Notes: generated from the sequence alone by a model not told the origin. Shown: positions 16,926 to 42,043, numbered from the stretch's first letter. The stretch: DNA of 64,000 nucleotides from a virus (IMGVR_UViG_3300045004_000084); one strand, 5' to 3'. Program-made: numbers and translations.

Positions 16926-18215
16926 TTACTTGTCAGGGCCTCTCGAGGCTTCTCTGCCGGACTGGATACCGCCGCCCATCAAGGCGCCGAGAATCGGGTT
17001 GCGGAGTTTTCCAATCCACAGATTCGTCCGCCCGGCGAATCCGGCCCGAGTCGCGGCACGCGCCGACGGAGTTCGGGCCGCCGCTGCCTGCGCCTTCGCC
17101 CGAGCAGCGGCCTCTTCGGCTTGCGCCTTAGCCACCTGTGCCTTGTACGAATTCAACGTCGCTTCGAGTGGCGCACGCCTGGCCGCCATGTCCTTCTGTA
17201 CTTGACCGTACAGAGTCTGCAGAAACGAATCGCTCGATCTGCGGCTCATGTCAATGAACCCGCCATGGGCGGCCAAGCGCCGGTTCAATTCGGCTAATTG
17301 CGTCGGCCCAAGATTGCGAGCTGCTCTCAAATAAGCATCGTTGGCTCCGGGTCCGCGAATGACCTTCGCGGCTGTCAGGGCTCTGATCCGATTCTGCAGA
17401 TCGGCCTGAGGAGCAGTGAAATTCTTAGCCGTCGATGCGGCCGTACTGGCGTTGAAGTTATGGTACCTCCGGCTGATATCCGGGCCGGCCTTGTCCGCCA
17501 TCGCCATCACAGTCGGGAACGCGATGGCTCCGGCCCCGGCTCCCTGGGCCACCCGCAATCCGCTGCGAGCGAGTTGCTTACCGCCCTCAGCCAGGTTGTT
17601 CAAGCTGAAGACGCTCTCGCCGCTGTCGACACCGACAAAATTCTGACTGGTGACAGGAGGCTTCGGGCCTGTCGTCACTGGACCCGTTCCTGCGGCAGTT
17701 CCTACGACATTTCCTCCACCAGCTACTGTGCCGGTTCCTGTGCCTGTCTCTTTGCTCATGCCCGGCTTCTCGTCCGGTTTCGGCTTCTTGGCGTTGAGCA
17801 ATTGGGATCCGCCGTATCCGGCCGCCGCCCCACCCAGGCCGCCCATGGCGAGTCCGGACAGGAAGTTCTTGAATCGGTTCCGCTTGCCGTCGCGGAGCAT
17901 ATTCAAGGCACCGAACGTGCTGCCGCCGATGAGGCTGCCGGCCAGCGCATACTGCTTATCCTTACTCAGACCTTTCCACCAGCCTTCGATACCGCCGGGC
18001 TTGGCGCTGCCAGCAGCGCCCTCACCACTGGCGGTTGCCGGCATAGTCGTCGGCGTTGTTGCCGGCGTTGTCAGATTTTTCCACCAGCGCTCGATACCGC
18101 TTGGCTTGGTGCTGCCAGCAGCACTGGCGGTTGCCGGCGTTGTCGTCGGCGCAGTCGTCGGCGTTGTCGTCGGCGTTGTCGTCGGCGTTGTCGTCGGTGA
18201 TGCCGGATCTCGCAT
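16926..18215 (-). CDS. Low-complexity virion protein: N-terminal Thr/Pro repeat (TTTPTTTPTTTP), glycine-zipper segments, Ala/Gln-rich C-terminus. Probable internal/ejected protein
   Basis: 12-bp DNA tandem repeats (about 18139-18198) encode the TTTP units. GxxxG runs (GGLGGAAAGYGG). Confidence 0.5.
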   Translation of the reverse strand: MRDPASPTTTPTTTPTTTPTTAPTTTPATASAAGSTKPSGIERWWKNLTTPATTPTTMPATASGEGAAGSAKPGGIEGWWKGLSKDKQYALAGSLIGGSTFGALNMLRDGKRNRFKNFLSGLAMGGLGGAAAGYGGSQLLNAKKPKPDEKPGMSKETGTGTGTVAGGGNVVGTAAGTGPVTTGPKPPVTSQNFVGVDSGESVFSLNNLAEGGKQLARSGLRVAQGAGAGAIAFPTVMAMADKAGPDISRRYHNFNASTAASTAKNFTAPQADLQNRIRALTAAKVIRGPGANDAYLRAARNLGPTQLAELNRRLAAHGGFIDMSRRSSDSFLQTLYGQVQKDMAARRAPLEATLNSYKAQVAKAQAEEAAARAKAQAAAARTPSARAATRAGFAGRTNLWIGKLRNPILGALMGGGIQSGREASRGPDK

Positions 18216-18218
18216 AGC

Positions 18219-19754
18219 TTACCTCCGTGCTTTCCGAGCTGCTTCCTCAGCGGCTGCCTGCTGCTTCATCTCAGCAAGCTGCATGCGGTCCCTGATACCC
18301 TCGAGCTCGCCAGAAAGATCTGCGACTTCCTTCGGAGTCAACTTGCCCTTTGTCGGGCTAGTCAACCGCTCCCTGATCTGATCCAGTCGAGTCTGCACAG
18401 TCAGGTCGCTCGGGCCTACGGTCGCCCCCAGATCGGCATTCGGATTCCCGCCGGGAGTGTACTTCAAGGGCGGCAGCGCTCCATAGCGAGTCCCGAGCCC
18501 GTTGGTCATCGTCTTGAAGTAATCGGACGTGACCCTCTCGTTCTCCATGTCGATGCCCTTCGAGGCACCGCCGATAAGCGTACCGACCAGGCCAGCCCTA
18601 CCGGTCCGGAAGATACTGCCGGGCGTCATCAGCTTCATGCGACCTTCCACCGGCACTTTGGCGCTGTACCCGTCGCTTACGAGCGCCCTGGCGATCGTAC
18701 GCGGGTCTTTGACGTCGGCCAAAGCCTTTGCGGCGATATTGTCAGACCCACGCAGAGCCGCCCTGATCTTCGCCTCCTGAGCCTGGAAGTCCGTGATGGC
18801 CCGGGGCATCACTGTCGGTGGTGCGGCTCCAGGCGCAACCGGACCGGGAACCGGCACCTTCCGCCACTTACCGAGCAGGTCGTCTAGATCGTCGGGGCTC
18901 AGATTGTCAACAGTGGCGAGGGCAGATGGACTCTTCGATAGGAACGACCGCAGAGTAGCGGCGTTCGGACTCGCGCTTGTGTAGTTGCCCAGGCCCGACC
19001 CGTACCGTCCAATCAGCCGGACGCCGGTCTCGCCGGCTCCGTAGATTCCGGCTCCGCGCCCGAAGCTGCCCAGTACCTCATCATTGCTCATGTTGTTGAG
19101 ACCACGGAGAGTCTTCTCACCCGTGACTTCGTCTTTGCCTTTGAATTCCTTCCCGACTCGCCGAATGTCTTTGTCCAAATTGGCCGACTGGGCGACACTG
19201 GGTCGCTGCTTCCCTAGTAAGCCGCTGGCCCCACCCAGGCTGCCGACTGCGGCACCACCGACACCGCCGAGCATGCCGCCAAACAGGATGTTCGAGAACG
19301 GACGCTTCCGCTTGTTCTTCGAGAACACGGTCGCGCCGAGACCGCCAAGGGCGCCGAGGCCGGCTCCGGCAATGCCGCCGGTGATTGCGTTCTGCAGCTC
19401 CGGACTCTGCTTGAAACTTTCGCGGATGCCAGCCCCAGCTTGATCGCCGACCCACTTCTTGAGGCCGCCCAGATTACGGTCGAAGAAGTCGGGCTCCGGT
19501 GTTGGCTCCGGTGTTGGCGTCGGTGTTGGCGTCGGTGTTGGCGTCGGTGCCGGCGCAGGCACAGCCGGCGGCGTCGTAGCGTTCGGATTGGCCTCTTTGA
19601 GCATCGCGGCCTGCTTGATGAGGTCGTCCGCCCACGCCGGTCGCTCGCCGGCCTTCACCACGCCACCCAAAGCGCGGCTCGCCACGGCCCGATCGGCGAG
19701 CATGGTAGCTGCGTCGGCAACACTCCCATCAAGCCAGGACAGATCGGCCGGCAT
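18219..19754 (-). CDS. Low-complexity virion protein with a (TP)n/(EP)n linker and glycine zippers (GGIAGAGLGALGGLGA). Paralog-like to the 16926-18215 protein
   Basis: TPTPTPTPTPTPEPTPEP repeat (DNA about 19495-19552). Gly-zipper motifs. Confidence 0.5.
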   Translation of the reverse strand: MPADLSWLDGSVADAATMLADRAVASRALGGVVKAGERPAWADDLIKQAAMLKEANPNATTPPAVPAPAPTPTPTPTPTPTPEPTPEPDFFDRNLGGLKKWVGDQAGAGIRESFKQSPELQNAITGGIAGAGLGALGGLGATVFSKNKRKRPFSNILFGGMLGGVGGAAVGSLGGASGLLGKQRPSVAQSANLDKDIRRVGKEFKGKDEVTGEKTLRGLNNMSNDEVLGSFGRGAGIYGAGETGVRLIGRYGSGLGNYTSASPNAATLRSFLSKSPSALATVDNLSPDDLDDLLGKWRKVPVPGPVAPGAAPPTVMPRAITDFQAQEAKIRAALRGSDNIAAKALADVKDPRTIARALVSDGYSAKVPVEGRMKLMTPGSIFRTGRAGLVGTLIGGASKGIDMENERVTSDYFKTMTNGLGTRYGALPPLKYTPGGNPNADLGATVGPSDLTVQTRLDQIRERLTSPTKGKLTPKEVADLSGELEGIRDRMQLAEMKQQAAAEEAARKARR

Positions 19755-21129
19755 TGAGCACCCCCTTTTCTTCCTCTGCGGTCTTGATCTTGCCGTAGCT
19801 CGGGTCGTCGCGCTGCTTGATCTTGTTCTCGATGTTCAGCAGAAGATCCACGTCGTAAGGGTCGATTGCATTCTTGCCGCCCTCGAGTCGCTTCCGCAAG
19901 ATCGCGCGGACAAGACCCTCCTGGCTCGCCGCTCGAGGGGCGAGCTGGGAGATCTCGTTGTAGTGTTGAAGGACGTCGTCCGGATGGAACCCGGAGATTA
20001 CGTCGTCGTTCGCCATCAAGTCCGTGAGCATGCCGCTCGTCTGCATGCTCTTGATCTTCATGTCTTGCTGGGGATCGTCCATCTGGTCCGACAGCTTGCT
20101 GGCAACCGAGTCCGGCGTAGGAGCCGCCAGTCGCATTGCCGAGATGCCGCCGAGCATGCCGCCGACGAAGTTAGCGACCTTTTTGCCTCCGGCCGGCTCA
20201 GAGCACACCAGCACCCCACGAGGCGCCGGACCGGAGGCGGGGACGAAAGGGTCGAGGAGTTCCTCCACCTTCGCGTCGTGGGTCTTGTCGATGGCCTCGA
20301 ACTCGGCCTGCTTGGCGAGGTACGTCTCGGCCTGAGACAGACACACCTTGATGAGCGAGTACGGCGGAACGTCGAACCGAACCGGATCAGCGAGTCGGCC
20401 GCGACTCAGTGCCTGCTTCTCCAGATGGCGATTGCGATCGCCGATCATGCCCATGAGCAGCTCGGCCTTCTTGCCGAACAGGCGGACGGCGTTGTCCCGG
20501 ACCAGCGGGAACGGCTGGCACCCCAGACTCCGGAAGTATTCGCCGAGTTTGGCGATGCCGCGAGTCAGTTCGTCGTGGGCGAACGATGCGGCCGCTCGAG
20601 CGTCGGTAACAGCCCGCTGCAGATCCAGAGCCTGACAGTAGGCGTGCTTGAGACGAATCGCCGGTTCGGTCGGCAACGGTGGCGGCGCCGAGACAATCTC
20701 CTTACCGTCTCGGGTCTTCATCGGCGCCAGCACAGCCGACGCGGTCTTAACCGTCTGCTGTTTCTTCTGAGCCCAATCCGGCCGGCGGGCGTACTCCTCG
20801 TCAACGACCGTTTCGGCGTGGATAGCAGCAGCCGTCTTGACGCTGGACGGGAACATCCGCTCGAGCACCCGCGAGGCGTCGGCCAGCGTGAACTCGGCGG
20901 ACTTCTCGAACAGGTCGGTACCGGCCCGCCGCTGTGATTCCTGGCGGCCAATGTTGTACGTCTGGACCATCAGATTGACGTGACCAGCCGGCAGCCCCAA
21001 GTCGGTAGCGACTTTGACAATGGCGTCGTTCGGGTCCGCGCCGGTGCTGACCAACTGGGCCACTTCACCTAGAGCGTCGGTGAGCCGCTGCTCGGCTTGC
21101 TTGTTAAGCCTGTTAACGGTTCGCGACAT
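19729..21129 (-). CDS. Virion-block protein of unknown function (466 aa)
   Basis: ORF with protein-like composition. Confidence 0.45.
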   Translation of the reverse strand: MSRTVNRLNKQAEQRLTDALGEVAQLVSTGADPNDAIVKVATDLGLPAGHVNLMVQTYNIGRQESQRRAGTDLFEKSAEFTLADASRVLERMFPSSVKTAAAIHAETVVDEEYARRPDWAQKKQQTVKTASAVLAPMKTRDGKEIVSAPPPLPTEPAIRLKHAYCQALDLQRAVTDARAAASFAHDELTRGIAKLGEYFRSLGCQPFPLVRDNAVRLFGKKAELLMGMIGDRNRHLEKQALSRGRLADPVRFDVPPYSLIKVCLSQAETYLAKQAEFEAIDKTHDAKVEELLDPFVPASGPAPRGVLVCSEPAGGKKVANFVGGMLGGISAMRLAAPTPDSVASKLSDQMDDPQQDMKIKSMQTSGMLTDLMANDDVISGFHPDDVLQHYNEISQLAPRAASQEGLVRAILRKRLEGGKNAIDPYDVDLLLNIENKIKQRDDPSYGKIKTAEEEKGVLNAGRSVLA

Positions 21130-22045
21130 TGGTCGCCTCCGGGAAAGTGAGCGTCTCCAGTTCTGCGGCGCGGGCGCCGCCGCTCGTAATTGCCATGAGT
21201 TCTCCGACCCGGGGCTCCGCTGCGAACCCGTCGACCTGAACGGTCATCGGGTTAAGCGGCCGGTCTGCATCGCCACGTCCGACCGACCAGGCCAGACCCT
21301 TCATCACCTCGCCGACCATCTCGACCAGCATGCCCTGCGATTCGCCGGCATTGGCGATCTTGGCGATCTCCTGGTACTTCTGCTCGATCTCGACGATGAT
21401 CTGCTGCGTATACCCGTTGACGGGCATCGTACGCATCGCAATCGCCGACTTCCGTCGAGCCACGGAGCGAGTGTCGTCCGAGAAGAAGTCGTTGACTCGG
21501 TCTGCACTCGTGGCCTTCGTCGGATTCGAGAACGTCGTGACCAACGCGTCGAGAACGAACGGTCCGCCGAAGTACCCGTACATCTTCCACAGCAGGTCGA
21601 ATTGCCGCTCGGTCAGGTTGGCGTAGATCGACCGCCCCATCACCGTGTGGACGATCCAGCTCTGGGCGTGGAGTCGGTCCTGCACGTTGAAGAACAACGC
21701 CTCGTACGCCAGGATAGCCCGAGGATCGAGGGCCAGCCGGGCGGCGATGCTTTCGGGTTTGTCCTCGGCAAGCAGTCGGGCCTCCACTTCCCAGCGTGGG
21801 CACTCGGCGCCGTTATCCTCGCGCATGTGCCTGGCGTCAGCTACGCCCGGATACTTCTCGGCCAGATCGAGTAGCTGCCAGTCGTCGCGGCACGCGGCCA
21901 AGTCGGTCTGGAACTGCTTGGCGAGTGACACCCACTCGTCGTCACGTCGGCGAGAAACGCGCCGGCTCTGCTCGCGCAGGAGCCGGGCCATCTGCCAGCG
22001 CCAGTCGACCGGGCGGAACGGGGCTTCGCGTCGCAACTGCAGCAC
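21113..22045 (-). CDS. Virion-block protein of unknown function (310 aa)
   Basis: ORF with protein-like composition. Confidence 0.45.
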   Translation of the reverse strand: MLQLRREAPFRPVDWRWQMARLLREQSRRVSRRRDDEWVSLAKQFQTDLAACRDDWQLLDLAEKYPGVADARHMREDNGAECPRWEVEARLLAEDKPESIAARLALDPRAILAYEALFFNVQDRLHAQSWIVHTVMGRSIYANLTERQFDLLWKMYGYFGGPFVLDALVTTFSNPTKATSADRVNDFFSDDTRSVARRKSAIAMRTMPVNGYTQQIIVEIEQKYQEIAKIANAGESQGMLVEMVGEVMKGLAWSVGRGDADRPLNPMTVQVDGFAAEPRVGELMAITSGGARAAELETLTFPEATNVANR

Positions 22046-22054
22046 GGACTAACC

Positions 22055-22489
22055 TCATCGAGGAAGCAGGCAGGCCAGAGCCAGGTCGAGAGTCAGGTTG
22101 CCGCTCCCAGCCGCTACCTCGATCTCCAGGTAGATGCGGTGGAGCTTCGACGCCGGACCGCCGTCCTGATTCTCGTACACCGGGCCGTCGTTGTTCCAGA
22201 ACTTCAGCAACTTCCCGGCCGAATCGGACGAGATCGTCGGGCACACCCGGTAGGCGTCCGGGTCGAGCGAGTACTCCCCTTCCGGGTTGTCGCCGCCGCT
22301 CGACGCGGACACGGAAGCACCCTTGCGGGAGTTGAAGATGTCGACCGTGAAGTTCGACATCGCCCCGCCGGTCTGCTTGATCACGAGCTTCGAGAGCCGG
22401 CACCGGGCAGGGAACCCCAGCGTCAGCACAGTCCGCTGCCCAGCCACGATCTCAAGGTCGCGGTACTGCTTCTCGTACGGCTTGAGCAT
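22055..22489 (-). CDS. Small beta-rich protein (144 aa), unknown
   Basis: ORF with protein-like composition. Confidence 0.4.
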   Translation of the reverse strand: MLKPYEKQYRDLEIVAGQRTVLTLGFPARCRLSKLVIKQTGGAMSNFTVDIFNSRKGASVSASSGGDNPEGEYSLDPDAYRVCPTISSDSAGKLLKFWNNDGPVYENQDGGPASKLHRIYLEIEVAAGSGNLTLDLALACLLPR

Positions 22490-22498
22490 GGGTTCTCC

Positions 22499-25879: not shown

Positions 25880-25885
25880 CGGCGG

Positions 25886-26398
25886 CTATACACGGGGTTT
25901 GTTCGGATCCCCGGCTAACAAAGTCCTCATGTTTTGCCCGCCCCGTGCCAAATCGGCTACCGCTGCCAGACCAGGCAGTCCGGCGTACCCGGCGATCCCC
26001 TTCGTTACCGGCTGCATCGCTCCCATGAACTGCCCGATCTGCTCGGGCTTGATGTTCTGGAGAAAACCGAGCATCCCGCCGGTCGGATCAGCGTCCGGGG
26101 CGGGTGGCGCCGGTGGCGGCTGGGGTACAGGCGCAGGGGGCGGAACCGGGGGCGGAACCGGGGGCGGAACAGCCGCCCGAGCCGGTGAAGGCGTCGGCAC
26201 CGGCGGTGGAACCGGCGGTGGAACCGGCGGCTTAGGCGGCGCCGGACGGGGCGCCGGAGCCGGCATCGGCGGCGGCTTAGGCATCGTTGGAGCCGTCGGT
26301 CCGGCGGGTCCGCCAGTCACCTTCGGCGGAACAGGATTAGGCCCCTTCGGATTGACGCCTTCGGCCGCCAACTTCGCCAGCATAATCTCGAGTTTCAC
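25886..26398 (-). CDS. Proline-rich protein (170 aa; PPVPPPVPPP tracts)
   Basis: ORF whose start overlaps the beta'C gene end by 4 nt. Confidence 0.4.
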   Translation of the reverse strand: MKLEIMLAKLAAEGVNPKGPNPVPPKVTGGPAGPTAPTMPKPPPMPAPAPRPAPPKPPVPPPVPPPVPTPSPARAAVPPPVPPPVPPPAPVPQPPPAPPAPDADPTGGMLGFLQNIKPEQIGQFMGAMQPVTKGIAGYAGLPGLAAVADLARGGQNMRTLLAGDPNKPRV

Positions 26399-28960: not shown

Positions 28961-28964
28961 GACT

Positions 28965-31533: not shown

Positions 31534-31575
31534 GGATGTACTCCAACAGTGTAACCGATCCCTAATTGAGGGTCA

Positions 31576-32181: not shown

Positions 32182-32185
32182 GACG

Positions 32186-35100
32186 TCACCCCAGAATAAC
32201 GACGTTGCTAGACGGCTTGATTCGCCCCTGACGCAGAGCCCGAATCATGTCGGCCTTCGTCTGGAAGTAGTGCGGCGAGCCGTTGTCTTTGGACGCAGTC
32301 GACTCGTATAGACCTCCAAGATACTCATTTTGTGGCATCATGTGTACACGAAAATTCTTGACCGCCAGCAGGTTGCGCGACGGCAGCATCTTCTCCATCG
32401 CGTCGCGGACGGCGGCGTCGCTGGCCGGGACGTGGTAGTTCATGGCGTCGCCGTCGAAGTCGGCGGCGAACCCCTTCACGATCAGCGGCGGCACCTGCAG
32501 CGTCTCGCCCTTCACCAGCCGGGGTTTGAACGCCATCGTCCCGTACCGGTGGAGCACCGGCGCCCGCGTCAGAATCACCGGCCGTTCGTCCATCTCGTCC
32601 TGCAGGGCGGTCAGCGCCATCTTCTCGTTGTTCTTGACCATCTCGGCGGCCCGCAGCGGGGGGACGCCCCGGCGGGCCAGGCGGCGGATGACGAACGGCT
32701 TGTAGATCTCCCACGCCTTCGACTCCGGCAGCCCGACCTGGTCCATGTCGAGCTCCGGGTTGGGCGTGATGACGGCCCGGCCGACCGTGTCGACGGTCGA
32801 CCCCAGGAGCTTGCGCTGGACGACGCCGAACTTCGGGTTGTCGCCGAAGACGTACTTCAGCACGCCCTTGACCTTCCGCTCGACGTGCTTCGGATTCGTC
32901 GGATCGCCAAGGCCGGTAACTGCCTTGAACGACTTGTACAGATTGAGCCGCTCCTGACCGACGTCGTCGACCATCTGGCTCATGTCCTTCAGGGCCTGGT
33001 TCGACTCGAACAGATCCTTGTACAGGTAGTTCGGGTCGGACACCATCGGTCGTCCCGACGAGCCCATGACCGACACCGGCCGGAACGCCGGCGGCAGCAC
33101 CGGAACTTTGTTCATGACCCAGTCGCCTGGGTGTATGCCAAGGCGCTGGGCGTGCCGGAGTAGAGCCAGCTTGCGGATCGCCTGGTCTCTGCTAGACCGC
33201 TTGCCGCTCCGAAACTCCGCCTCAGCCGCGTCGATTCCCTTCTGCACGTCGATCCGCTTCAAGGCTGACGCGATCGCAGGCGGCCCCTTCATGCCGTTGA
33301 GCTCGGCCTTGCCGATCATCACCTCCTCGAACTTCTTCTCCGTCAGACCGAGGACGCGCCGAATCGGTTCCTCCATGATCGGATTGGGCATGGGCTCGTG
33401 GAGACGTATGAAAGACCAACGGTTGCCGCCGTGGCCGCCCGTCAGCGTGTTGTCGAACAGCCCGCCGGCAACAGGCTTGAGGCCATCCTTCCAGTCCACC
33501 GTCTCGGCGTTCGTGACCTCGCGACCGGCCGCCATCTGGTCGATGTCGCGGTCGGTCAGAGCCATGACCTGGGTCTTCGACCCGCGAGCCACCGGGTTGA
33601 TTCCGGCCGATTGTAGTTGCGCCAAGAATTTTCGGTAAACGAGGGGAACCTTCGGTTCCGGCGGCGTCTTGCCGGCCATGAACGCGGCCCAGAAATCCTG
33701 GTTCTTCTGCCCCCGAATGGACCCGGCGTCGTGCAGAACGCCGTGAGCGCCGTGGCTCAGCAAAGCGTTGATGTCCATGAGCGAGATCCGCTTGGAGCCG
33801 GTTTCGCCGCCCTTCGCCGGGGTCTCTTCGTTCGTGTATCCGCCGAGGCCACGCCCTTGCCCCTTCGACTCGGACGTGTGGTGCAACTTCATGAAGAAGC
33901 GGTTCCCGGTGAACACCTGGGAAATCTTCCGCTGGGTAGTCGGATCCTCCACGTCCTCGGTGTCCGGGATGCCATGGCGACCGAGTTCGGCGATAGCCAT
34001 CTCGACCATGTCGTCGATGTTGTCGAAGTCCTTGATGGCGTACCGCCGCCCCGTCCGCTCGGCGATCTTGCCGAGGGCGGCCTCAACCATCTGACCGGGG
34101 TTGGTACGGGTGATAATGCCGAGCGGATTCGCCAGAACCTCGTACGGCTTGCCGTCACCGTCCCTGGGCATCTCCTCGTCGGGAATGATGTGAGCGATGA
34201 CGCCCTTATCGCCGTAGCGGCCGGACAATTTGTCGCCGACCTTCATCTCGGACAACGACTTCACGGTGACGACTACACCCTTGTCCGTCTTCTCGACGTC
34301 TGTTACGACGCCCGGATCGTGGTGGTCCCAGGTCAGGGTCGAATCACTGAACATGGCCTCCTTGCCACGGACGATCTGGTTGTGAGCGCGGTCCTTGGCC
34401 TTGGCCTGGAGAACGAGTGGATGACCCTCTTCGACGCGAGTCCCGGGAGCGACGATTCCGTCACTGTCCAAAGTGTCGAGCATCTTGCGGTCGAACTTGG
34501 TCGGGAACAGAGACAGGAACGTCTTCTTACCTCTCTTGGTGTTATCCTCCCACTCCGTATCGTGCTGGTACATGTGCTCGCTGGAAAGCCGCTTGGCGGC
34601 CGCCTGCGAGATCACGATTGCGTCCTCGAAGTTCAGGCCCTTATACGGCAGGTAAGCCACCCGCATGTTCAGGCCCAGAGCGGTCGCCCCCTTGTCGTCG
34701 GTGTAGTTCGACTTGGCGAGTAAGTCGCCCTTCTTCACCATGTCACCGACGCCCACAACCGGAGTGTTGTGCAAAAACGTCTTGCGATTGAACGGCAAGT
34801 TGTTGTGCAGCTCGTGGACCTGAACCTTACCGTCTGGACCCTTGACGTGAACCTCGTCCGGCGAGACGTGAACCACCTGCCCCTCGACGTCCGAGTGGGC
34901 GGCGCCCATGTACTTGCCGTACTCCTCCTCAAACGAGCGGTCGTCGTGGTCGGGTATGCCGGCCTGGACGAACGGCGCCTGCGGATTCGCCAGCGGCAGC
35001 GCCTGAGTGAGCATCCGCGCACCCATCATCACCCGCTGGCCCTTGATGGTGCTCTTCAACGGGATCATGTTGGCGAGCGGGTTGAAGGCCGACTCCATGT

Positions 35101-36649
35101 TCGGCATCGTCAGGTCGACCTTGTCGCGCGGAACATACTTCAGCTTCCCGCCCTGTAGGGCCGCGACCATCGTCTTCTTCTGGTCGCGGAGTTCGCCGGG
35201 AAAGGCGATGGTCATGTCGGCCACGTCCTGAGGAGTCTTCCACACCTTGTCGCCGGACTTCGGGTCGAGGAACTGGCTGTACACCTTTCCGTCGGTACCC
35301 TTGCGGGCGTTGAACGCCAGCCTGGAGTCGACGCCGACCTTGAAGCTCTCGGGGGTTAAGAGCGGGTCGACGTACCCGAAGTGAGAAGGCTGGACGTTGC
35401 GCGCCTCTTCCGGCACCGAGTCGATGCTGGGGATGCCGCCCTCACCGAGTCGAGATACGCGGGTGATCTGACTGAGCAAGTCCGCCGGGTTCACCTCCTC
35501 GAGCGGTTGACCCAGGCCCGACGCAGTAATCGCCGCCTTGACGTGCTTGTCGAGGAAGTTGGCCCCGAGCGGACTCAGATTCTGCTTGAACGTGGCCTTC
35601 CACAACAGCGGCCGTAGAGCCTTATGGGCGTTGCGCAGCCTCTCCGCAAACAGGTCCTCCGGTCCGAGCAAGTTCTGATACGCAAGTGCGTCGCGGTCGT
35701 CGGGCTCCTGCTCGCCCTTGTGAACAGCCAGAATACGTTTCGTCGAAGACAGTATCGAGTCCACGGACAATCGGTCGAACCCCGTGCCGAGGGTGCGCTT
35801 CGTAACCTCCGGGTCGAGGTGCATATCGCCGAGCACTTTCGCCAGGGCAGCCCGACGGTTGTCAGGAGTGTCAGGTCCGTCGGTGTTCTTGATGAGACGC
35901 TTAACCAACTTGTCGACCACTCGAGGGTCGTCGCTCTTGAGGTTGGCCCCGAGCACGTCGTCGCCCCACGCCTCGCGGAGCTGCATCTCGGTGGCGCCCA
36001 TCGCACGCAGCACCGGCAACAACGGAAGCTGCGCCTGACCGAAACCGATCTTGAACGTGCTCTTCTCGGGGTCGAGCGTGTACCGGTGGCTGACCCCCTT
36101 GCCCGGAAGGATATTAACGTGACTCTCGACCTCGCCGTTGTGCTTGTGGCGAGTGAAAATGCCCGGCCTCAGCCGCATCTGGTTGGCGAGCGTGTATTCG
36201 GTGCCGTTGAGTACGAACGTGCCGCCGTCGGTCATCACCGGGACAGTGGCAAGAGTCGTCTTTCGCTCGTCGATGGTCGCCCCGGTGGCGTTGTCCACGA
36301 GCCGCCAGGTGCCACGCAGTCGTCGGCCCAAGGTTTCGCCGCGAAGAATGGCCCGCTTGCGGTCCTTCTTCTTGACGTCCTCGGGATCGGCCCAATCGAC
36401 GTCGGATAGCTGAAGAGTGTGACGTGTGTTCTGGACAGGTTGTATACCACGAGCAGCGTTGAGCACGCCGTCGTAAATCGACCGACGCATGGCAGGAACG
36501 TCGGCGAAGTCGCGCATAGCAGGGCCGGCGGTGGCGGGTTGAATCGCCACCGCCGGCGTGGGCGCCGGTGCCTGAGTGGAATTTATTGTAACCGGCGTGG
36601 GTGGCTTCGGCAACACCCCGGCCGGTGAGTCGTCGAGGACTCCGGCCAT
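32186..36649 (-). CDS. Fused multisubunit RNA polymerase beta - beta' N-terminal polypeptide (1487 aa): a complete-looking beta subunit followed directly by the beta' region up to and about 90 aa past the catalytic NADFDGD loop
   Basis: Beta motifs: 'GRYGDKGVIAHIIPDEEMPRDGDGKPYEVLANPLGIITRTNPGQ' aligns to 'RHGNKGVISKI..DMP...[21 protein letters not shown]', and 'RISLMDINALLSHGAHGVLHD' aligns to 'GEMEVWALEAYGAA'. Beta' motifs: 'RAPVLHRYGTMAFKPRLV' and 'GFAADFDGDAMNYHVP' align to 'NADFDGDQMAVHVP'. Confidence 0.9.
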   Translation of the reverse strand: MAGVLDDSPAGVLPKPPTPVTINSTQAPAPTPAVAIQPATAGPAMRDFADVPAMRRSIYDGVLNAARGIQPVQNTRHTLQLSDVDWADPEDVKKKDRKRAILRGETLGRRLRGTWRLVDNATGATIDERKTTLATVPVMTDGGTFVLNGTEYTLANQMRLRPGIFTRHKHNGEVESHVNILPGKGVSHRYTLDPEKSTFKIGFGQAQLPLLPVLRAMGATEMQLREAWGDDVLGANLKSDDPRVVDKLVKRLIKNTDGPDTPDNRRAALAKVLGDMHLDPEVTKRTLGTGFDRLSVDSILSSTKRILAVHKGEQEPDDRDALAYQNLLGPEDLFAERLRNAHKALRPLLWKATFKQNLSPLGANFLDKHVKAAITASGLGQPLEEVNPADLLSQITRVSRLGEGGIPSIDSVPEEARNVQPSHFGYVDPLLTPESFKVGVDSRLAFNARKGTDGKVYSQFLDPKSGDKVWKTPQDVADMTIAFPGELRDQKKTMVAALQGGKLKYVPRDKVDLTMPNMESAFNPLANMIPLKSTIKGQRVMMGARMLTQALPLANPQAPFVQAGIPDHDDRSFEEEYGKYMGAAHSDVEGQVVHVSPDEVHVKGPDGKVQVHELHNNLPFNRKTFLHNTPVVGVGDMVKKGDLLAKSNYTDDKGATALGLNMRVAYLPYKGLNFEDAIVISQAAAKRLSSEHMYQHDTEWEDNTKRGKKTFLSLFPTKFDRKMLDTLDSDGIVAPGTRVEEGHPLVLQAKAKDRAHNQIVRGKEAMFSDSTLTWDHHDPGVVTDVEKTDKGVVVTVKSLSEMKVGDKLSGRYGDKGVIAHIIPDEEMPRDGDGKPYEVLANPLGIITRTNPGQMVEAALGKIAERTGRRYAIKDFDNIDDMVEMAIAELGRHGIPDTEDVEDPTTQRKISQVFTGNRFFMKLHHTSESKGQGRGLGGYTNEETPAKGGETGSKRISLMDINALLSHGAHGVLHDAGSIRGQKNQDFWAAFMAGKTPPEPKVPLVYRKFLAQLQSAGINPVARGSKTQVMALTDRDIDQMAAGREVTNAETVDWKDGLKPVAGGLFDNTLTGGHGGNRWSFIRLHEPMPNPIMEEPIRRVLGLTEKKFEEVMIGKAELNGMKGPPAIASALKRIDVQKGIDAAEAEFRSGKRSSRDQAIRKLALLRHAQRLGIHPGDWVMNKVPVLPPAFRPVSVMGSSGRPMVSDPNYLYKDLFESNQALKDMSQMVDDVGQERLNLYKSFKAVTGLGDPTNPKHVERKVKGVLKYVFGDNPKFGVVQRKLLGSTVDTVGRAVITPNPELDMDQVGLPESKAWEIYKPFVIRRLARRGVPPLRAAEMVKNNEKMALTALQDEMDERPVILTRAPVLHRYGTMAFKPRLVKGETLQVPPLIVKGFAADFDGDAMNYHVPASDAAVRDAMEKMLPSRNLLAVKNFRVHMMPQNEYLGGLYESTASKDNGSPHYFQTKADMIRALRQGRIKPSSNVVILG

Positions 36650-36653
36650 GTGC

Positions 36654-37682
36654 TCACCCCTTGATGTCTACCTCGTCGCCGCGTCGAACCACCGGTGTCG
36701 GCACCGCGAAGATCTCCGGCGTACGAGTCGCCCATCGCTCCCGCGACCGCTTCTTCACCAGGTCGGCGAGGACTTTGTTCGGATCCGTCTTGGAGAAGTA
36801 CTGATTAGCCAGGTATCCGCTGCCAAGTGCCAGGCCGCCGGCCAGGGCGGCGTACAGACCCAGGGCACTGCCGCCGACCGAACTGGCGGTCTGCTGTGCT
36901 TTGAAAGTCGGAAACAGGCCATCGACCCTTTTCCCGATGGTGTCGGTCCAGGTTTCCTCGCCGAGCTTGGTCATGAGCGTCGCCAGCTCATGCAGATCGC
37001 GGGCCAAGAGGCTGGCTGCCGAGCCGCGCTTGACCAGCGAAATCTGCTTCGGGTCGTACATATCGACCAGGGCCTCCTGGTACTCCCGCTTGGCGTCGTC
37101 CAGTTCCCCCTTGAGATCGGCCTTTCGCTTCTTGTTCAAAATCCAGTCCATGATCTTGTATCCGCCGATGCTTCCGCCGACTGTCGCCGCTCCGACTGCC
37201 GGGATGTACCACGGCATCTGCGTCTTGCCGAGTTCCGACGTCGGGCTGGCACCGTGACCTGCAAGCCATCCGCCGTCTTCCGGGTTGAACGGGTTCTTGT
37301 ACATGCCCAACATCGAGCCGATCGGGTGCAGCTTCTGGGCCGACTTGATCTGCGTCCCTGCCGCCCCCCGTATTGTCTGGTCCTTTTTCTTCTTCCGAAT
37401 GCCGGCGTCGGAGTCAGTGTCAAACACCGGGCGCGGCACCTCTAGCAGCGCCGGACTTTGATCGGCCAGCAGGGCCGGCTTGCCCCGTCCGAACATGGTG
37501 CCGGCACCTTGCAAACCGCGCACGCCGATACCCAACGCCCCGGCCAAAAGCAGCGCACGACTGACGTCACCTATCCCTTGCGAGATCATCTCGTTGCGGG
37601 CATTGACGGTGATCGGGTCGTTGTCAAGTTCCGACCGCTTCACGAACTGGTCTTGGATGGCTTTGGTAATCGGGCTTCGCAT
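36654..37682 (-). CDS. Glycine-zipper virion protein (342 aa), unknown
   Basis: GAATVGGSIGG and ALGLYAALAGGLALGSG motifs. Follows the RNAP gene with a 4-nt gap. Confidence 0.45.
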   Translation of the reverse strand: MRSPITKAIQDQFVKRSELDNDPITVNARNEMISQGIGDVSRALLLAGALGIGVRGLQGAGTMFGRGKPALLADQSPALLEVPRPVFDTDSDAGIRKKKKDQTIRGAAGTQIKSAQKLHPIGSMLGMYKNPFNPEDGGWLAGHGASPTSELGKTQMPWYIPAVGAATVGGSIGGYKIMDWILNKKRKADLKGELDDAKREYQEALVDMYDPKQISLVKRGSAASLLARDLHELATLMTKLGEETWTDTIGKRVDGLFPTFKAQQTASSVGGSALGLYAALAGGLALGSGYLANQYFSKTDPNKVLADLVKKRSRERWATRTPEIFAVPTPVVRRGDEVDIKG

Positions 37683-37685
37683 GAA

Positions 37686-38048
37686 TTATCTCCCCACCTC
37701 TGAGGTACCCGGCCGCGTCGGAATGCGACCTTTCGGTTCCGCCCATTCCATAAGCACCTTCACAATAGTGCCGTCCGTCGAGATGATTTCCCGTCGGACG
37801 AGCTGGATGCACGCACGGTTGGCGATCCGATCGCGTATATCCTGGTAAGCCTCCATGTCCGTCGGCTCGAGCAGGTCGAATATCCGTACCTGGACATCCA
37901 CCTCGACAGGGATGTTGCGGTACTCCTCGTCCCGCATGTTGGGCATCATGCCCGGGTTCTTGATGGGGAACCCATGGTGGGTCGCCGCCCGCTGATCGCG
38001 GTACTTGGGACTCACGCCCCGCCCACCGAAATGACTCAAGATGTCCAT
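37686..38048 (-). CDS. Small protein (about 120 aa), unknown
   Basis: Track ORF 37686..38102 trimmed to MDILSHF... so that it abuts the upstream gene's end at 38050. Confidence 0.4.
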   Translation of the reverse strand: MDILSHFGGRGVSPKYRDQRAATHHGFPIKNPGMMPNMRDEEYRNIPVEVDVQVRIFDLLEPTDMEAYQDIRDRIANRACIQLVRREIISTDGTIVKVLMEWAEPKGRIPTRPGTSEVGR

Positions 38049-38049
38049 C

Positions 38050-38508
38050 TCAACCCCCAATGGAACTCTGAGCTGCCCGGAGCTGCTTGATCCGCCGGGC
38101 ACGATCGGTCAGTCGCTGGATCTCGGACAGCTCCTCGTCCGTCTTGGCCTCCTCGACGGTGAGGGGGTCCTTCTTGGCGTCGGCCAGAATCTTGCCGCCG
38201 AGGATACCGGCGGCGGCCGGCACAGCCAAGCCGGTGATCGTGAGGAACTTGCCCATGCCGACCGGGTCCCTGTCGAAAACATGGCCGAGCATGGAGCCGC
38301 CACCGGCACCGAGCGGGCCGCCAACCGCGCCGCCAGCGACACCGCCGACGGTTGCACCGGGTCCGATATTGAAGCCGAACAGCGCACGTTTCTCGCGGCG
38401 GACCTTCGCCAGCGCCGTCTTCACCCGCTGGTGGGTCTGCTCGACGTCGAGTCCCTCGTCGGCACACCTCATAAGGAAGGCGACTTTGAACGCTTCGATC
38501 GGGCTCAC
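38050..38508 (-). CDS. Small glycine-zipper protein (152 aa) with an amphipathic N-terminus
   Basis: GPGATVGGVAGGAVGGPLGAGGGS and AVPAAAGILGG motifs. Confidence 0.4.
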   Translation of the reverse strand: MSPIEAFKVAFLMRCADEGLDVEQTHQRVKTALAKVRREKRALFGFNIGPGATVGGVAGGAVGGPLGAGGGSMLGHVFDRDPVGMGKFLTITGLAVPAAAGILGGKILADAKKDPLTVEEAKTDEELSEIQRLTDRARRIKQLRAAQSSIGG

Positions 38509-38518
38509 GGCGTCCTCC

Positions 38519-38926
38519 TCAGTCGATCCCGCCGGGGACGTAGACGCCGCCCGGGGTGTAGTGGTTGGGGTCTTTGTGGTGGTTGTAGGCCCCGCTCATC
38601 GAGACCTTGACCTTCTTGCGGAGCTGGGCCTGCTGGCGGGCCACTTCGGGGTCCAGAGGGCAGCCCTGTTTCTCTGCCTCCTGCGCGCAGAGCACGCAGT
38701 GGACGGCGCCCTGGAACATCTCCCGGATCTCGTCCTTGTACTTCCAGCCCTCGTTCTTCATCTTCTGGGCGTCGGCGGCGAATGCGCGGCCTCGGAGACG
38801 AAGCTCCATCGGGGAGACGTCCTTCTCCTCGCCGGTCTCCTCGTTGATCATCCGGCACATGCCGTTGACCGCGAAGAAAACGAGCTTCCTGAACCGGTAG
38901 CGGGTGCCTTCTTTGTTGTCGGACAT
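38519..38926 (-). CDS. Small Cys-containing protein (about 135 aa), unknown
   Basis: Track ORF trimmed to MSDNKEG..., which has an AAGGA RBS about 8 nt upstream. Confidence 0.4.
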   Translation of the reverse strand: MSDNKEGTRYRFRKLVFFAVNGMCRMINEETGEEKDVSPMELRLRGRAFAADAQKMKNEGWKYKDEIREMFQGAVHCVLCAQEAEKQGCPLDPEVARQQAQLRKKVKVSMSGAYNHHKDPNHYTPGGVYVPGGID

Positions 38927-39011
38927 GCCGGCATCCTTGCTCAAAAGGGAGCGGGCATTCCGTGCCCGCAGTTCACAGCTTACCGAAGTCAACCCCGTCT
39001 GTCACGGCCGG

Positions 39012-40091
39012 TCAGTTCCCGAACAGACCAGGCACCACGGCCTTCAAAGCGCCGGCGAACGCGCCGGTCTGCTGAAGCCGCTTCTGGGCCTGCGGAGTCA
39101 GCCCAGCCAGAGCCCCCAACACCTTGCCGCCGAGATACGCCTGAGACAGCCCGGCGCCCATACCAATGCCGATGCGGGCCAGGTCGTACGGCGAGATGAT
39201 GCCCAAACCGCCTCGGGCCTGGTTGGCCGCCTCGGTCATACCGACCGTCGCAGCCTGGAGCTGCGGAGTGGCGAACGGGTCAACGAGCACGGCCCGATTG
39301 AACAGGTCGACGGGGATCGACGGCATGAACAGCCCCCCGCCCTCACCGATCGCCGCCTTGACGAATTCGGACTCCGGGTTGCATTCCGGTGCTGCCTTTT
39401 CCAGACCCTCGGCCGCCGCTCGGAGGAACTGGCCCTGCTTGAAATTGCCGGGGTCGAGATCGGCGGCCATGCCGGCCGGCGGTTGGTCTGGCTCCTTGCT
39501 GAACAGACCGTTGGGCTTGAGCCATGCGCCGAATGCCGACGTTCCCGGTTCGCGATTCCGCATGGCCTCGGTCCCGAGCCACAGCCCGGGAACCGAGCCG
39601 AGAGCCCCGCCGAGCAGGGCTGTCACCTTACGCAGGCGGCCGCGCCGGATCACGTCTTCGGGCAGCAGATTCTCGGCGACGCGGCCTCCGAGGTAGCCCA
39701 GACCGGCACCGAGAAGGCCGCCGCCGATTGTGCCGGCCAACGGAGTGGCTCCACCAAACGGGGCATTGAGCTTAGACGGAGCGAGATTCGTCGCCTGCAG
39801 TATCGGCTTGAAGATCGACTTAGTGCTCCACGCCGCCGACTTGATTGGCACCCATGGTTCGTCCGGGTCGAGTGGTCGAGACTGAACGATGCACTCGATC
39901 CCGGCCTCGGCGAGCTTTGTAGCTGCGCCAACACTTTTGGTGACGAGCCGTCCAGACTCAGGCTGGAGATAAACCCACGAAGGGTCTTCGCCGAGTGCAG
40001 CGGCCACCTTGATGTACGTCGGAGCGGCCATATCTGCGAGACGGATCGCCTCGGTCGGGACGAACCGCCAGAGCATCAATTCCGTGTTCAC
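39012..40091 (-). CDS. Glycine-zipper virion protein (359 aa), unknown
   Basis: Multiple GxxxG runs (TIGGGLLGAGLGYLGG; IGIGMGAGLSQAYLGG). Confidence 0.45.
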   Translation of the reverse strand: MNTELMLWRFVPTEAIRLADMAAPTYIKVAAALGEDPSWVYLQPESGRLVTKSVGAATKLAEAGIECIVQSRPLDPDEPWVPIKSAAWSTKSIFKPILQATNLAPSKLNAPFGGATPLAGTIGGGLLGAGLGYLGGRVAENLLPEDVIRRGRLRKVTALLGGALGSVPGLWLGTEAMRNREPGTSAFGAWLKPNGLFSKEPDQPPAGMAADLDPGNFKQGQFLRAAAEGLEKAAPECNPESEFVKAAIGEGGGLFMPSIPVDLFNRAVLVDPFATPQLQAATVGMTEAANQARGGLGIISPYDLARIGIGMGAGLSQAYLGGKVLGALAGLTPQAQKRLQQTGAFAGALKAVVPGLFGN

Positions 40092-42043
40092 GGCCCCTCC
40101 GGCGGTTTCTCGAAAGCCTTGTGGTAGAGCTGGCGACCGGCCTCGTCGGCCTTCAATGTCGCCAAGTCGGTGACGCCAACGCGGTCGGTTACCTTGCGGA
40201 CCGCGTCGGCCGACGACAGGGTTTTTTCGGCAGCCGAACCAGCTAATTCTCGGGTCGGCGGCCGATGTTCACGAGCCTTATTGATCGCCGGCATAGCATA
40301 CGGGCCAGCCCTCATGAGATAGTCGGCGCCCTGCGGGCCGACAACCGAGGTAAGCAGAGCCCGGCGGCTGTCCGGGTTATTCCACAACGCCGGCTCGGCA
40401 GTCTCGGCCAGAGTCTTGAGAATCGGACTGTCGAACACCGCTTCGGGGTTATGCAGCACGTCGACACCAACCTGCTTGGCGGTCTCGTAGGCCACGTCCG
40501 GAGCACCCTCACCGAGGTTGTGCATGACGTTGCCGATGACCGTCTGCTTAGCCAAGTTGGCCGGAGTGGGAACGAACTTGCTCGGCGACCGGGTGAACAA
40601 GTCGGTCGCCTTATCGATCTTCGGCCTCTTGATTTCGACGCCGACCATCTTGGGCTTCGGCAGCATCATGACTGTGTTCTTGACGAACCGGAAAGGAGCC
40701 CTGCCGATCGGCGTGTCGTCGCCGCCCATAGACGCCGGCGCAAGCGTCTGATGCAGCAGCTTCGGCTGGGCCTTCATGACTCTCCACCACTGGCGGTTGA
40801 TAGCGTCCTCGTCTGTGACGCCGGCCGAGCGCAAATCCGCCTCGACTCGGTCTGGCGCAACCCGCGCACCGCGATAGCCGCTGTACGCCCCTAGTCCTCC
40901 GTAAGTGAGCTTGTTGGCATGACGACCGAGACGAGGGCTGAACGTCTGCAGCAGCGGACGCACCGGATTGCTGGTGAGAATGTTCTTTCCGGCGCGCAGA
41001 GCCACGGCCGTGACGTGGCCGGCCCTGCCCATGTCGTCGAGCGAGCGCATCGCCCGTGTGCCCACTCTATTAAGAGGGTTGAGGCGACCGAGCGTGCCCG
41101 GGATGGAGACCGGACTGCCGGTGCGGTTCAACAGGCCAACACCCTGTAGGTTGCCGCCCTGGCCGAACCCGGCCCAGTTCTTCATGAAGTTGACGGGGGC
41201 CTTGACGACTGCCTTACCGGCGCCCAACGTCGCGTCACGAGCCCGAGCCGACAGTGTCCTCGAGACGGCGGGTGCCGGCGGCACGGGAATAGGGGGCTTC
41301 GGAACGATCGGCAGCTTCTGGGCCGCTCCAGACCTGCCAAAAAGAGCCCCTATCAGGCGGTTAGCCGCCTTCTCGATCGGATCCGTCTTGAGGCGAGGTA
41401 CGACCACATCCGTAGGCAGCATCCGCCCCGGCATGTGGATCCGGAATTGCGTGGGTGAGTGTGTCAGCCCGACGATCCCGTCGGGCTGTTCGCTGTCGAT
41501 CACGAAATCGTTGGGGCTCTTCGAGATCAGTTGGCGCAGAATTGCGTGCTTACGCAGGTAGTGTTTCCGATCGCTGTACATCTTCGCCAGCAGCAACTGG
41601 GGAAGTGCGGAAGAAGCGGCGCGTTTTTCCTCTAATACGCCGCCGTACTTCTCGTTTTCGGAATTTTCCCGATTTTCTTCCTTCTTGTTTTTCCCCACCC
41701 CGACGTAGTCGAGCAGCTTGCCGCTGCCGACCCAACCGAGACCAGCACCGCCGAGGGCCGCGAGGATTGTCGGCCAGTCGGGTTCGCCGTCTTTCGGCAT
41801 CATGGCCTTGCCGGCGAACAGACCGCCGGCCCCGGCCGACAAACCCTGCAACAAGCCACGGAGTTTATGCTGCGCCGACGCCGCTCGAGCGACGCCGATG
41901 GCGGACACGCCCGGAATGTTGGTCGGATTCTCCTCGCCGCTGGCGAGTCCGTAGTCCGGGTCGTTGACGCCGTAAACCGGCAGACCGGCTGTCCGGTCCG
42001 TCAGCGGACGGGCCACAAAAGCTGGAGCGGACGTCTTGTCCAT
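40088..42043 (-). CDS. Large virion-block protein (651 aa) with Gly-zipper and Pro-rich segments. First gene of the minus-strand block
   Basis: Long ORF. ATGA overlap with the downstream gene. Promoter-like element upstream (see next feature). Confidence 0.5.
   Translation of the reverse strand: MDKTSAPAFVARPLTDRTAGLPVYGVNDPDYGLASGEENPTNIPGVSAIGVARAASAQHKLRGLLQGLSAGAGGLFAGKAMMPKDGEPDWPTILAALGGAGLGWVGSGKLLDYVGVGKNKKEENRENSENEKYGGVLEEKRAASSALPQLLLAKMYSDRKHYLRKHAILRQLISKSPNDFVIDSEQPDGIVGLTHSPTQFRIHMPGRMLPTDVVVPRLKTDPIEKAANRLIGALFGRSGAAQKLPIVPKPPIPVPPAPAVSRTLSARARDATLGAGKAVVKAPVNFMKNWAGFGQGGNLQGVGLLNRTGSPVSIPGTLGRLNPLNRVGTRAMRSLDDMGRAGHVTAVALRAGKNILTSNPVRPLLQTFSPRLGRHANKLTYGGLGAYSGYRGARVAPDRVEADLRSAGVTDEDAINRQWWRVMKAQPKLLHQTLAPASMGGDDTPIGRAPFRFVKNTVMMLPKPKMVGVEIKRPKIDKATDLFTRSPSKFVPTPANLAKQTVIGNVMHNLGEGAPDVAYETAKQVGVDVLHNPEAVFDSPILKTLAETAEPALWNNPDSRRALLTSVVGPQGADYLMRAGPYAMPAINKAREHRPPTRELAGSAAEKTLSSADAVRKVTDRVGVTDLATLKADEAGRQLYHKAFEKPPEGP

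Follow-up and report, generated by a model that had tools for sequence, protein, structure and literature searches.

The 64-kb stretch of viral DNA analysed here (IMGVR_UViG_3300045004_000084; 63% G+C, nearly all genes on the minus strand), referred to as the window throughout, is part of the genome of an uncultured large myovirus and carries, within a block of head-assembly genes, two genes for a multisubunit RNA polymerase (RNAP). These encode a fusion of beta with the N-terminal half of beta' (beta + beta'-N) and, separately, the C-terminal half of beta' (beta'C). Judged by its sequence, the enzyme is a member of the little-studied RNAP group found in Salmonella phage Arash. We lean, if only somewhat, towards the view that this RNAP is packaged in the virion, its core together with a phage-encoded sigma factor as a holoenzyme. 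The two genes are as follows:

32186-36649, minus strand: RNAP large subunit, beta + beta'-N fusion, 1487 aa, no cysteine (Pfam, PHROGs, PDB and NCBIfam matches)
26395-28314, minus strand: RNAP beta'C, 639 aa, no cysteine, ending in '...SMGGGVL' (26398-26412; Pfam, PHROGs, PDB and NCBIfam matches)

A preliminary description of the window had already recognised RNAP pieces at both places; Pfam matches and catalytic motifs bear this out, and the fusion had gone unnoticed. In the 1487-aa open reading frame (ORF), Rpb2_6 (173.8 bits), Rpb1_2 (84.1 bits) and Rpb2_3 (28.7 bits) score above their Pfam cut-offs and Rpb1_1 below its own. The domains run from beta (Rpb2_3, Rpb2_6) to the N-terminal part of beta' (Rpb1_1, Rpb1_2), and this set therefore corresponds to a complete beta joined to the N-terminal half of beta'. 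The shorter protein matches Rpb1_5 above cut-off (53.9 bits). The catalytic motif AADFDGD lies at aa 1397 of the large subunit, with DFDGD kept in 115 of 120 large-subunit homologues, and GDKLSGRYGDKG at aa 805 is the conserved lysine-containing loop of beta (GDK...GDKG). Comparison with solved structures gives bacterial beta (alignment spanning aa ~60-1040) and bacterial beta' as the top matches, and the large subunit scores 434 bits against bacterial enzymes versus about 100-126 bits against those of phiKZ-like phages. The top NCBIfam models are fused rpoBC proteins (PRK09603, PRK14844). The rpoC1/rpoC2 boundary is where beta' is divided: the rpoC1 model is covered to position ~550 of 619 and beta'C aligns from position 548 of the rpoC model (NCBIfam). 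Bacterial beta' carries zinc sites; sites of that type cannot exist here, because neither subunit has a cysteine with which to build the zinc-binding clusters.

Such bacterial best matches, in both the solved structures and NCBIfam, might suggest that the locus is cellular DNA carrying a bacterial rpoBC gene, or else an assembly chimera. The model scores are, however, far below the equivalog cut-offs (349 vs 5372 bits), and the neighbouring genes encode capsid, tail sheath, protease-like and HNH proteins. Moreover, at least nine independent contigs carry the identical 1487-aa protein, which rules out an assembly artefact as the source of the fusion, and the family is found on phage-like contigs of up to 235 kb, a relative in IMG/VR among them. 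A cellular or chimeric origin is thus hardly credible.

No match to the RNAP region was found in a nucleotide search of 50,697 phage records. At the protein level the closest annotated phages are Arash and the Vibrio phages D69, D148 and D181, with 30% identity over 96-98% of the large subunit. Metagenomic data hold a family of 1470-1495-aa fusions (724 matches at E < 1e-10 among the candidates scored, some with inteins), the contigs reaching about 235 kb; relatives of the phage occur on contigs of 210-235 kb. For comparison we used the metagenomic relatives L003, L004, L006/L013 and L014, the window's own contig extended by 10 kb (L011), and Arash (L001). The block is colinear in L006/L013, a 213-kb contig with 60% RNAP identity that has almost all block genes in the same order, and in L004, a 234.9-kb IMG/VR contig with 54% RNAP identity in which a 637-aa ORF separates the ORF of beta from that of beta'-N. 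Further out, the order large subunit, beta'C, gp218-like, gp219/gp220-like, protease-like, capsid and sheath genes is kept as far as Arash and D69 (tblastn, 30% identity). One RNAP locus was matched in each of these two phages, no other RNAP is annotated in the ~145 kb of Arash examined, and neither the window nor its 10-kb extension showed a second RNAP set.

The sigma factor that would complete the enzyme is encoded on the same contig (L011:21588-22421), about 10 kb beyond position 1 of the window, its left end, where the gene sits at the end of a co-oriented array that follows the tail sheath gene. This 277-aa protein of the sigma70 family matches Sigma70_r3 (31.9 bits against a cut-off of 25.3), while its region 4 stays below cut-off (19.2 and 17.0 bits). 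Pfam does not detect region 2, but the protein aligns, from position 41, with the SigB/F/G and FliA models (group-3 sigma factors), as well as with the region-2 part of Arash gp10. It is homologous to gp10 (pairwise E 5e-15), one of two sigma factors encoded by Arash (gp10 and gp196), and gp10 likewise lies among genes annotated as structural. Queries with the Arash sigma, terminase and SNF2 proteins gave no match inside the window, the sigma factor surfacing only in the contig extension. The neighbours of the sigma gene have no PHROGs or Pfam annotation; from their position they are putative tail or baseplate genes.

The preliminary description had proposed a packaged RNAP by analogy with phiKZ-like phages. 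The analogy of placement is a fair one, as the phiKZ virion RNAP (vRNAP) genes gp178 and gp180 stand beside the head protease gene gp175 and genes for head proteins; packaging itself receives indirect support from the gene order and the virion proteome of Arash, but the enzyme does not belong to the phiKZ family. In mass spectrometry of Arash virions, no protein gave more unique peptides or spectra than the large subunit gp206 (128 and 3516, respectively; PMC10585845). Unique peptides numbered 40 for gp216 (beta'C), 38 for gp217, 32 for the annotated portal, 30 for the capsid protein and 24 for the sigma factor gp10, and 2-11 for ribonucleotide reductase, ligase, primase and helicases; gp218, gp220 and gp222 were detected as well (PMC10585845). 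As an observation of its own, gp217, annotated as a 'DNA helicase' (L001:31166-32584), is a cysteine-free SNF2-family ATPase that is as abundant in the virions as the RNAP subunits.

Amino acid composition points in the same direction. No cysteine occurs in the 2126 residues of the two RNAP subunits, nor in the sigma factor, compared with 1.34% cysteine in the metabolic proteins of the window, and homologues are cysteine-free in 83 of 96 cases for the fusion and in 120 of 120 for sigma. Beyond these, the proteins of the window that lack cysteine are mainly the low-complexity or glycine-zipper neighbours of 651, 342, 508, 268, 170, 511 and 429 aa. In Arash, gp206 contains one cysteine in 1525 aa and gp196, the sigma factor undetected in virions, contains three; gp10 and gp217 are cysteine-free. 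Cysteine exclusion may thus be an adaptation to time spent outside the cell, perhaps to passage through the tail channel.

A second family-level feature is a short terminal peptide, scored as [GSN][VIL][LFIM]. The large subunit begins with 'MAGVLDDSPAGVLP' (36608-36649; MAGVLD..AGVLP), followed by a hypervariable proline-rich linker and then by the conserved core; the motif falls within the first 8 residues of 65 of 120 large-subunit homologues in its strict form, and of 96 of 120 in a relaxed form. beta'C ends in 'GGGVL' here, in 'NNGVL' in L014 and in 'GSILDNQTGSVLDGL' in L013, the motif being found in three of the four lineages read. The sigma factor ends in 'NLGVL', and tails of the LGVL, LGIL, LNIL or TGLF type are present in 66 of 120 sigma homologues, so that all three parts of the holoenzyme bear a terminal peptide of the G-V-L type. 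The C-terminal form of the motif occurs in 4 of 63 proteins of the window and extension, all four being head-block proteins or sigma, and in a highly conserved ~800-aa protein family of the head block (see below) the motif lies in a disordered linker in 24 of 35 members. The 466-aa protein of the head block also ends in the motif ('KGVLNAGRSVLA'). From this conservation and distribution, the G-V-L peptides may act as cargo-targeting signals.

The genes from 42043 down to 15439 form an array with gaps of at most 93 nt, most of them below 20 nt, and several overlaps. Accordingly spaced, the RNAP core genes and the head-assembly genes probably make up one transcription unit of about 26.6 kb, with the following elements at its ends:

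42085-42113, minus strand: sigma70-type promoter TTAACA-17-TATGAT, upstream of the first gene of the RNAP/head operon (consensus match, hexamers conserved in L003)
42134-42162, plus strand: divergent sigma70-type promoter TTGCCG-17-TAGAAT with extended TG, for the ribonucleotide reductase gene (consensus match, conserved in L003)
42237-44522, plus strand: ribonucleotide reductase, the only nucleotide-metabolism gene on the plus strand
15415-15433, unstranded: terminator-like hairpin closing the RNAP/head transcription unit, 7 bp, GC-rich, with T-runs on both strands

The minus-strand promoter (42113-42085), the stronger of the two at 42.1 kb, drives the RNAP/head operon itself, and only one other site in the 64 kb matches the consensus at 10/12 or better. 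In L003 the hexamers of both 42.1-kb promoters are conserved, and the spacers and the 5' untranslated region have diverged. The preliminary description had seen in these promoters an argument for transcription by host RNAP. The consensus matches are real, but a -35/-10 promoter is no evidence for the host enzyme, because the phage encodes a sigma70-family factor of its own. It had also used gene orientation to set the RNAP genes with the morphogenesis genes and apart from the nucleotide-metabolism block. The RNAP genes do run with the morphogenesis genes, but so do most nucleotide-metabolism genes: the genes at 44.6-64 kb for PhoH, pyrophosphatase, 2H phosphoesterase, NT5C and HD proteins share the minus strand with RNAP, and only ribonucleotide reductase is on the plus strand. 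What sets the RNAP block apart from them is operon structure, not strand.

As to other signals, the second match of at least 10/12 (TTGGCA-17-TAGAAT, 54806-54834, plus strand) opposes the surrounding minus-strand genes and sits in a 505-nt gene-free stretch (54406-54910) with no Rfam match and no tRNA. A weaker hairpin inside the operon (38969-38951) could attenuate transcription. A candidate phage-specific promoter motif, TYTCTTWARCC, was not enriched after terminators (3 found versus 2.0 expected), the AT-rich islands of the window yielded nothing useful, and the window contains neither tRNA genes nor Rfam families.

The promoter data are also the starting point for an account in which the polymerase stays out of the virion: host RNAP would read the operon from the 42.1-kb promoter, the phage enzyme would then take over middle and late genes, and its place among head genes would reflect co-regulation or history. 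A near-consensus sigma70-type promoter with conserved hexamers is what this account expects, a promoter of the same kind serves ribonucleotide reductase, whose gene is no virion gene, and the Arash preparation was not clean. Under such a scheme, however, host RNAP would switch on the head genes and the polymerase together, which would leave the phage polymerase pointless. Nor does it fit easily with a placement kept over very deep divergence, with Arash subunits and sigma whose unique peptides far exceed the carry-over level, or with a family-wide exclusion of cysteine and shared terminal peptides, for which a purely cytoplasmic enzyme offers no obvious reason. We consider a non-virion polymerase rather unlikely.

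Packaging of the holoenzyme, which we prefer, has several observations weighing against it. The Arash virion preparation contained 116 proteins, metabolic enzymes included, and its authors offered two explanations for the presence of the polymerase, early transcription or the carry-over of abundant proteins (PMC10585845). For the phage of the window itself the support is wholly indirect, and the case for packaging goes back entirely to this relative at 30% identity. Cysteine content in phiKZ, taken as a control, differs in the same direction between the virion and non-virion enzymes, but only two-fold (0.61% in vRNAP versus 1.16% in the non-virion RNAP). Homologues of beta'C with long extensions mostly lack a terminal G-V-L, and the motif is barely enriched after their core (26 of 142, versus 14 in shuffles); in Arash and D69 the G-V-L form is absent ('PIFSSP' and 'PYILGG' instead). 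Because it is not general in beta'C and takes another form in Arash and D69, we take the G-V-L peptide as a feature of the sub-clade of the window and of the large-subunit and sigma families. Nothing marks the RNAP/head operon as late, its promoter being of the same -35/-10 class as the divergent one of ribonucleotide reductase. No family match to an alpha or omega subunit was found among the window proteins scanned, a set that covers part of the genome and not all small ORFs. Finally, no portal was recognised. The ~800-aa family protein occupies the place where one would be expected but gives no portal-like fold match, and the head module is therefore assigned from the protease-like gene, the capsid gene and the similarity to virion proteins of Arash.

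If the RNAP is indeed packaged, the fused beta/beta'-N, beta'C and sigma would be synthesised alongside the head proteins and loaded as a holoenzyme into the prohead, possibly through their terminal peptides and with the cysteine-free glycine-zipper neighbours as co-packaged cargo. The holoenzyme would then reach the next cell together with the DNA and, with no phage protein yet synthesised there, would read phage promoters of the -35/-10 type by means of the phage sigma factor, presumably those of early genes. The same core might serve the whole infection with successive sigma factors, which is plausible given the single RNAP locus seen in each of Arash and D69 and the two sigma factors of Arash. 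The proposal in its fullest form, that a large clade of big phages, nearly all of them uncultured, delivers a sigma-dependent holoenzyme of bacterial type, which like other head cargo is free of cysteine for survival outside the cell and tail passage and is sorted into an HK97-type capsid by terminal G-V-L peptides as a phage counterpart of encapsulin cargo-loading peptides or the T4 capsid-targeting sequence, joins several such suppositions, and we regard it as unlikely to be right in every part.

The remaining genes of the operon, and the capsid and tail genes downstream of it, are listed in the order of transcription:

40088-42043, minus strand: 651-aa cysteine-free protein, first gene of the operon; Gly/Ala-rich hydrophobic segments; ~80-aa domain (aa 141-221) after 'GGVL'
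39012-40091, minus strand: 359-aa glycine-zipper protein with C-terminus '...PGLFGN', conserved in L006 (41% identity)
38519-38992, minus strand: 157-aa (135-aa by gene call) conserved small protein
38050-38508, minus strand: 152-aa glycine-zipper protein
37686-38102, minus strand: 138-aa (120-aa by gene call) conserved small protein
36654-37682, minus strand: 342-aa cysteine-free protein with two Gly/Ala-rich hydrophobic segments, directly upstream of the RNAP large-subunit gene; conserved in L003, L004 and L006
31576-32181, minus strand: HNH homing endonuclease with 18 cysteines, inserted after the large-subunit gene; not at this position in L004 and L006
30007-31533, minus strand: 508-aa cysteine-free protein with HELGH (HExxH) at aa 206 and a long C-terminal glycine zipper
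29204-30010, minus strand: 268-aa cysteine-free Gly/Ala/Pro low-complexity protein with 'PYDILDEPK'; the L006 and L014 homologues keep 'NILD'
28328-29110, minus strand: 260-aa (210-aa by gene call) protein with a transmembrane-like segment, a proline-rich linker and a conserved C-terminal domain (phrog_5928), directly upstream of beta'C
25886-26398, minus strand: 170-aa cysteine-free protein, 30.6% proline; its start overlaps the beta'C stop codon
22499-25879, minus strand: 1126-aa (1097-aa by gene call) member of the highly conserved ~800-aa family, weak homologue of Arash virion protein gp218
22055-22489, minus strand: 144-aa conserved protein
21113-22045, minus strand: 310-aa conserved protein, weak match to D69_0267 and Arash gp219
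19729-21129, minus strand: 466-aa protein ending in 'KGVLNAGRSVLA', weak match to Arash virion protein gp220
18219-19754, minus strand: 511-aa cysteine-free protein with a (PT)n linker and glycine zippers
16926-18215, minus strand: 429-aa cysteine-free protein with a (PTTT)n linker and glycine zippers
15439-16914, minus strand: 491-aa prohead-protease-like protein, last gene of the operon (phrog_18299, head maturation protease, E 0.0017; phrog_2774)
13955-15319, minus strand: 454-aa Gly/Ala-rich protein with eight GxxxGxxxG positions, between the protease-like and capsid genes, the usual scaffold position
11866-12798, minus strand: major capsid protein, HK97 fold, 310 aa (31% identity to Arash gp226; phrog_2522; NCBIfam capsid_Caudo_2 below cut-off)
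4257-7025, minus strand: tail sheath (phrog_2839, phrog_279; homologue D69_0281)

The glycine zippers, Pro/Thr linkers and low-complexity repeats reported earlier for the proteins flanking the RNAP genes are confirmed by composition and by the translations, and are concentrated in the RNAP block. Runs of GxxxGxxxG and low-complexity fractions of 0.15-0.58 are found in the products of 13955-15319, 16926-18215, 18219-19754, 25886-26398, 29204-30010, 30007-31533, 38050-38508 and 39012-40091, and tail and metabolic proteins have almost no GxxxGxxxG or low-complexity tracts. Their composition, the weak homology to Arash virion proteins and the exclusion of cysteine suggest that these flanking proteins are internal or ejected virion proteins. 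They might instead be scaffold-like or core proteins removed at head maturation, or membrane proteins of the infection stage, in which case at most the RNAP would be packaged. The 454-aa glycine-rich protein does occupy the usual position of a scaffold, none of these neighbours matches any family, several are variable or missing between relatives, and composition alone can leave low-complexity proteins without cysteine. Yet the cysteine-free set coincides with RNAP and sigma, a G-V-L type motif is common to some of these neighbours, and the adjacent 1126-, 466- and 491-aa proteins, which are not of low complexity, have weak homologues in Arash virions (gp218, gp220 and gp222). A scaffold or membrane role is a possibility to be kept in mind, albeit a doubtful one.

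Several of these proteins have further features. In the 508-aa protein, the metalloprotease-like HELGH is conserved in L003, an N-terminal 'MPFKSRSQQRWMF' segment matches phrog_1375 and the C-terminus has a run of eleven GxxxGxxxG positions; no Pfam or NCBIfam family matches it. The 1126-aa protein has a ~280-aa Pro/Gly-rich low-complexity insertion, with a hydrophobic segment and three [GS]VL motifs, that is found in this lineage only. Its ~800-aa family has no annotation anywhere and no fold match, and a model of the family gave no portal-like match. The 491-aa protease-like protein is 36.6% identical to Arash virion protein gp222; it has no Pfam or NCBIfam match, and phmmer against solved structures returned nothing meaningful. 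The major capsid protein likewise has no Pfam match. From the tail sheath gene it follows that the tail is contractile.

The ~80-aa domain of the 651-aa protein recurs, fused to the C-terminus of beta'C, in three relatives (P0372, P0376 and P0486), and is also present in an 894-aa 2H-SAK (2H-phosphoesterase)/NUDIX protein of L006 (L006:5228-5581); it may be an adaptor or targeting module. Homologues of beta'C (P0361-P0510) are mostly 950-1700 aa long, some with inteins and most with a variable, often proline-rich C-terminal extension, which measures roughly 300-1100 aa in the majority. The 170-aa proline-rich ORF at 25886-26398 is possibly the detached start of such an extension. Mobile elements seem to favour the RNAP genes, as seen in the HNH gene here, the 637-aa ORF of L004 (L004:13028-14941) and the inteins of homologues, which are of the LAGLIDADG/Hint type and occur in many homologues of both RNAP subunits (P0003, P0005, P0013 and others). 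Elsewhere in the window, a 265-aa protein (45661-46458) gives a match resembling the C-terminal domain of ribosomal protein L7/L12 (24.9 bits, cut-off 25.9), and the same faint match appears in the precomputed annotation. Two stretches that are gene-free in the gene model, 58674-59244 (571 nt) and 61170-61592 (423 nt), probably contain short ORFs.

Polymerases delivered by the virion are already known from N4-like, crAss-like and phiKZ-like phages. The clade described here is represented in metagenomes by hundreds of members, with contigs as long as about 235 kb, and pairs a nearly bacterial core with a sigma70-family factor of its own, and its single cultured relative, Arash, shows core and sigma in particles. 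If packaging holds, it would represent a third, independent route by which a phage gains transcriptional autonomy from the first second of infection. The clade would also be a simple model for the assembly of a ~240 kDa core without alpha subunits, and for its loading and ejection, while cysteine-free composition and terminal peptides could serve as cheap sequence markers for predicting packaged cargo in uncultured phages.

The capsid-targeting sequence of T4 and the cargo-loading peptides of encapsulins follow one scheme, in which a short terminal peptide, joined through a flexible linker, is borne by several unrelated cargoes of an HK97-fold shell. The G-V-L peptides share with them a short conserved terminus, a variable linker and an occurrence in several proteins; there is no sequence relationship, and the likeness is one of conservation and distribution only. 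Among cellular enzymes, the fused rpoBC of the Helicobacter/Wolbachia type provides the top NCBIfam matches and cyanobacterial rpoC1/rpoC2 the same break in beta', but neither combines fusion and split as the window enzyme does, and the latter is cysteine-free. The crAss-like phages package a polymerase for early-gene transcription; it is a single-chain two-barrel protein so divergent that no similarity to COG0085/COG0086 can be detected. N4 also delivers a polymerase for its early genes with the virion, but one with a T7-like single-subunit fold (review).

The mReC group comprises metagenomic tailed phages, some of more than 200 kb, whose beta and beta' are of nearly full length and form branches separate from the cellular enzymes, and with T4 gp23-type capsid proteins (PF07068) (PMC7481178). 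As described, mReC does not fit the window, whose capsid protein has no Pfam match, hence no PF07068, and gives a sub-threshold match to the HK97-type capsid_Caudo_2 instead. The paper does not discuss fusion, sigma or packaging, and the IMG metagenome identifiers of two IMG/VR relatives are absent from its supplementary files (PMC7481178).

The vRNAP of phiKZ-like phages (Chimalliviridae) is packaged, injected and used for early genes (reviews). The likeness to it lies in a multisubunit enzyme, in RNAP genes beside those for the head protease and head proteins (phiKZ gp175, gp176, gp177, gp178 and gp180), and in the same proposed working logic. The phiKZ enzyme, however, comprises five or more polypeptides, lacks a factor of the sigma family and exists alongside a second, non-virion set; reviews describe phiKZ-like phages as devoid of sigma factors, phage multisubunit RNAPs as working without sigma, and phage sigma factors as serving the host enzyme. 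The window enzyme consists of one fusion and one beta'C, has a sigma70-family factor, is closer to bacterial enzymes and comes with a small HK97-type capsid protein. An identity as a phiKZ-type vRNAP was rejected on the grounds that the enzyme is fused rather than split, associated with sigma and closer to bacterial enzymes.

The closest parallel is that with Arash, D69, D148 and D181. Identity is only 25-30%, the proteins upstream of RNAP and between the RNAP genes are unrelated, and in Arash beta'C is adjoined by the SNF2-family ATPase gp217, of which no homologue was found in this window. Shared, on the other hand, are the fused beta + beta'-N (1525 aa in Arash versus 1487 aa here; 30% identity over 98% of the query) and the separate beta'C. 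Arash and D69 further share with the window the order relative to the gp218-like, protease-like (gp222), capsid (gp226) and sheath genes. Arash has a homologous sigma factor among genes annotated as structural, and its large subunit is nearly free of cysteine; the one here has none.

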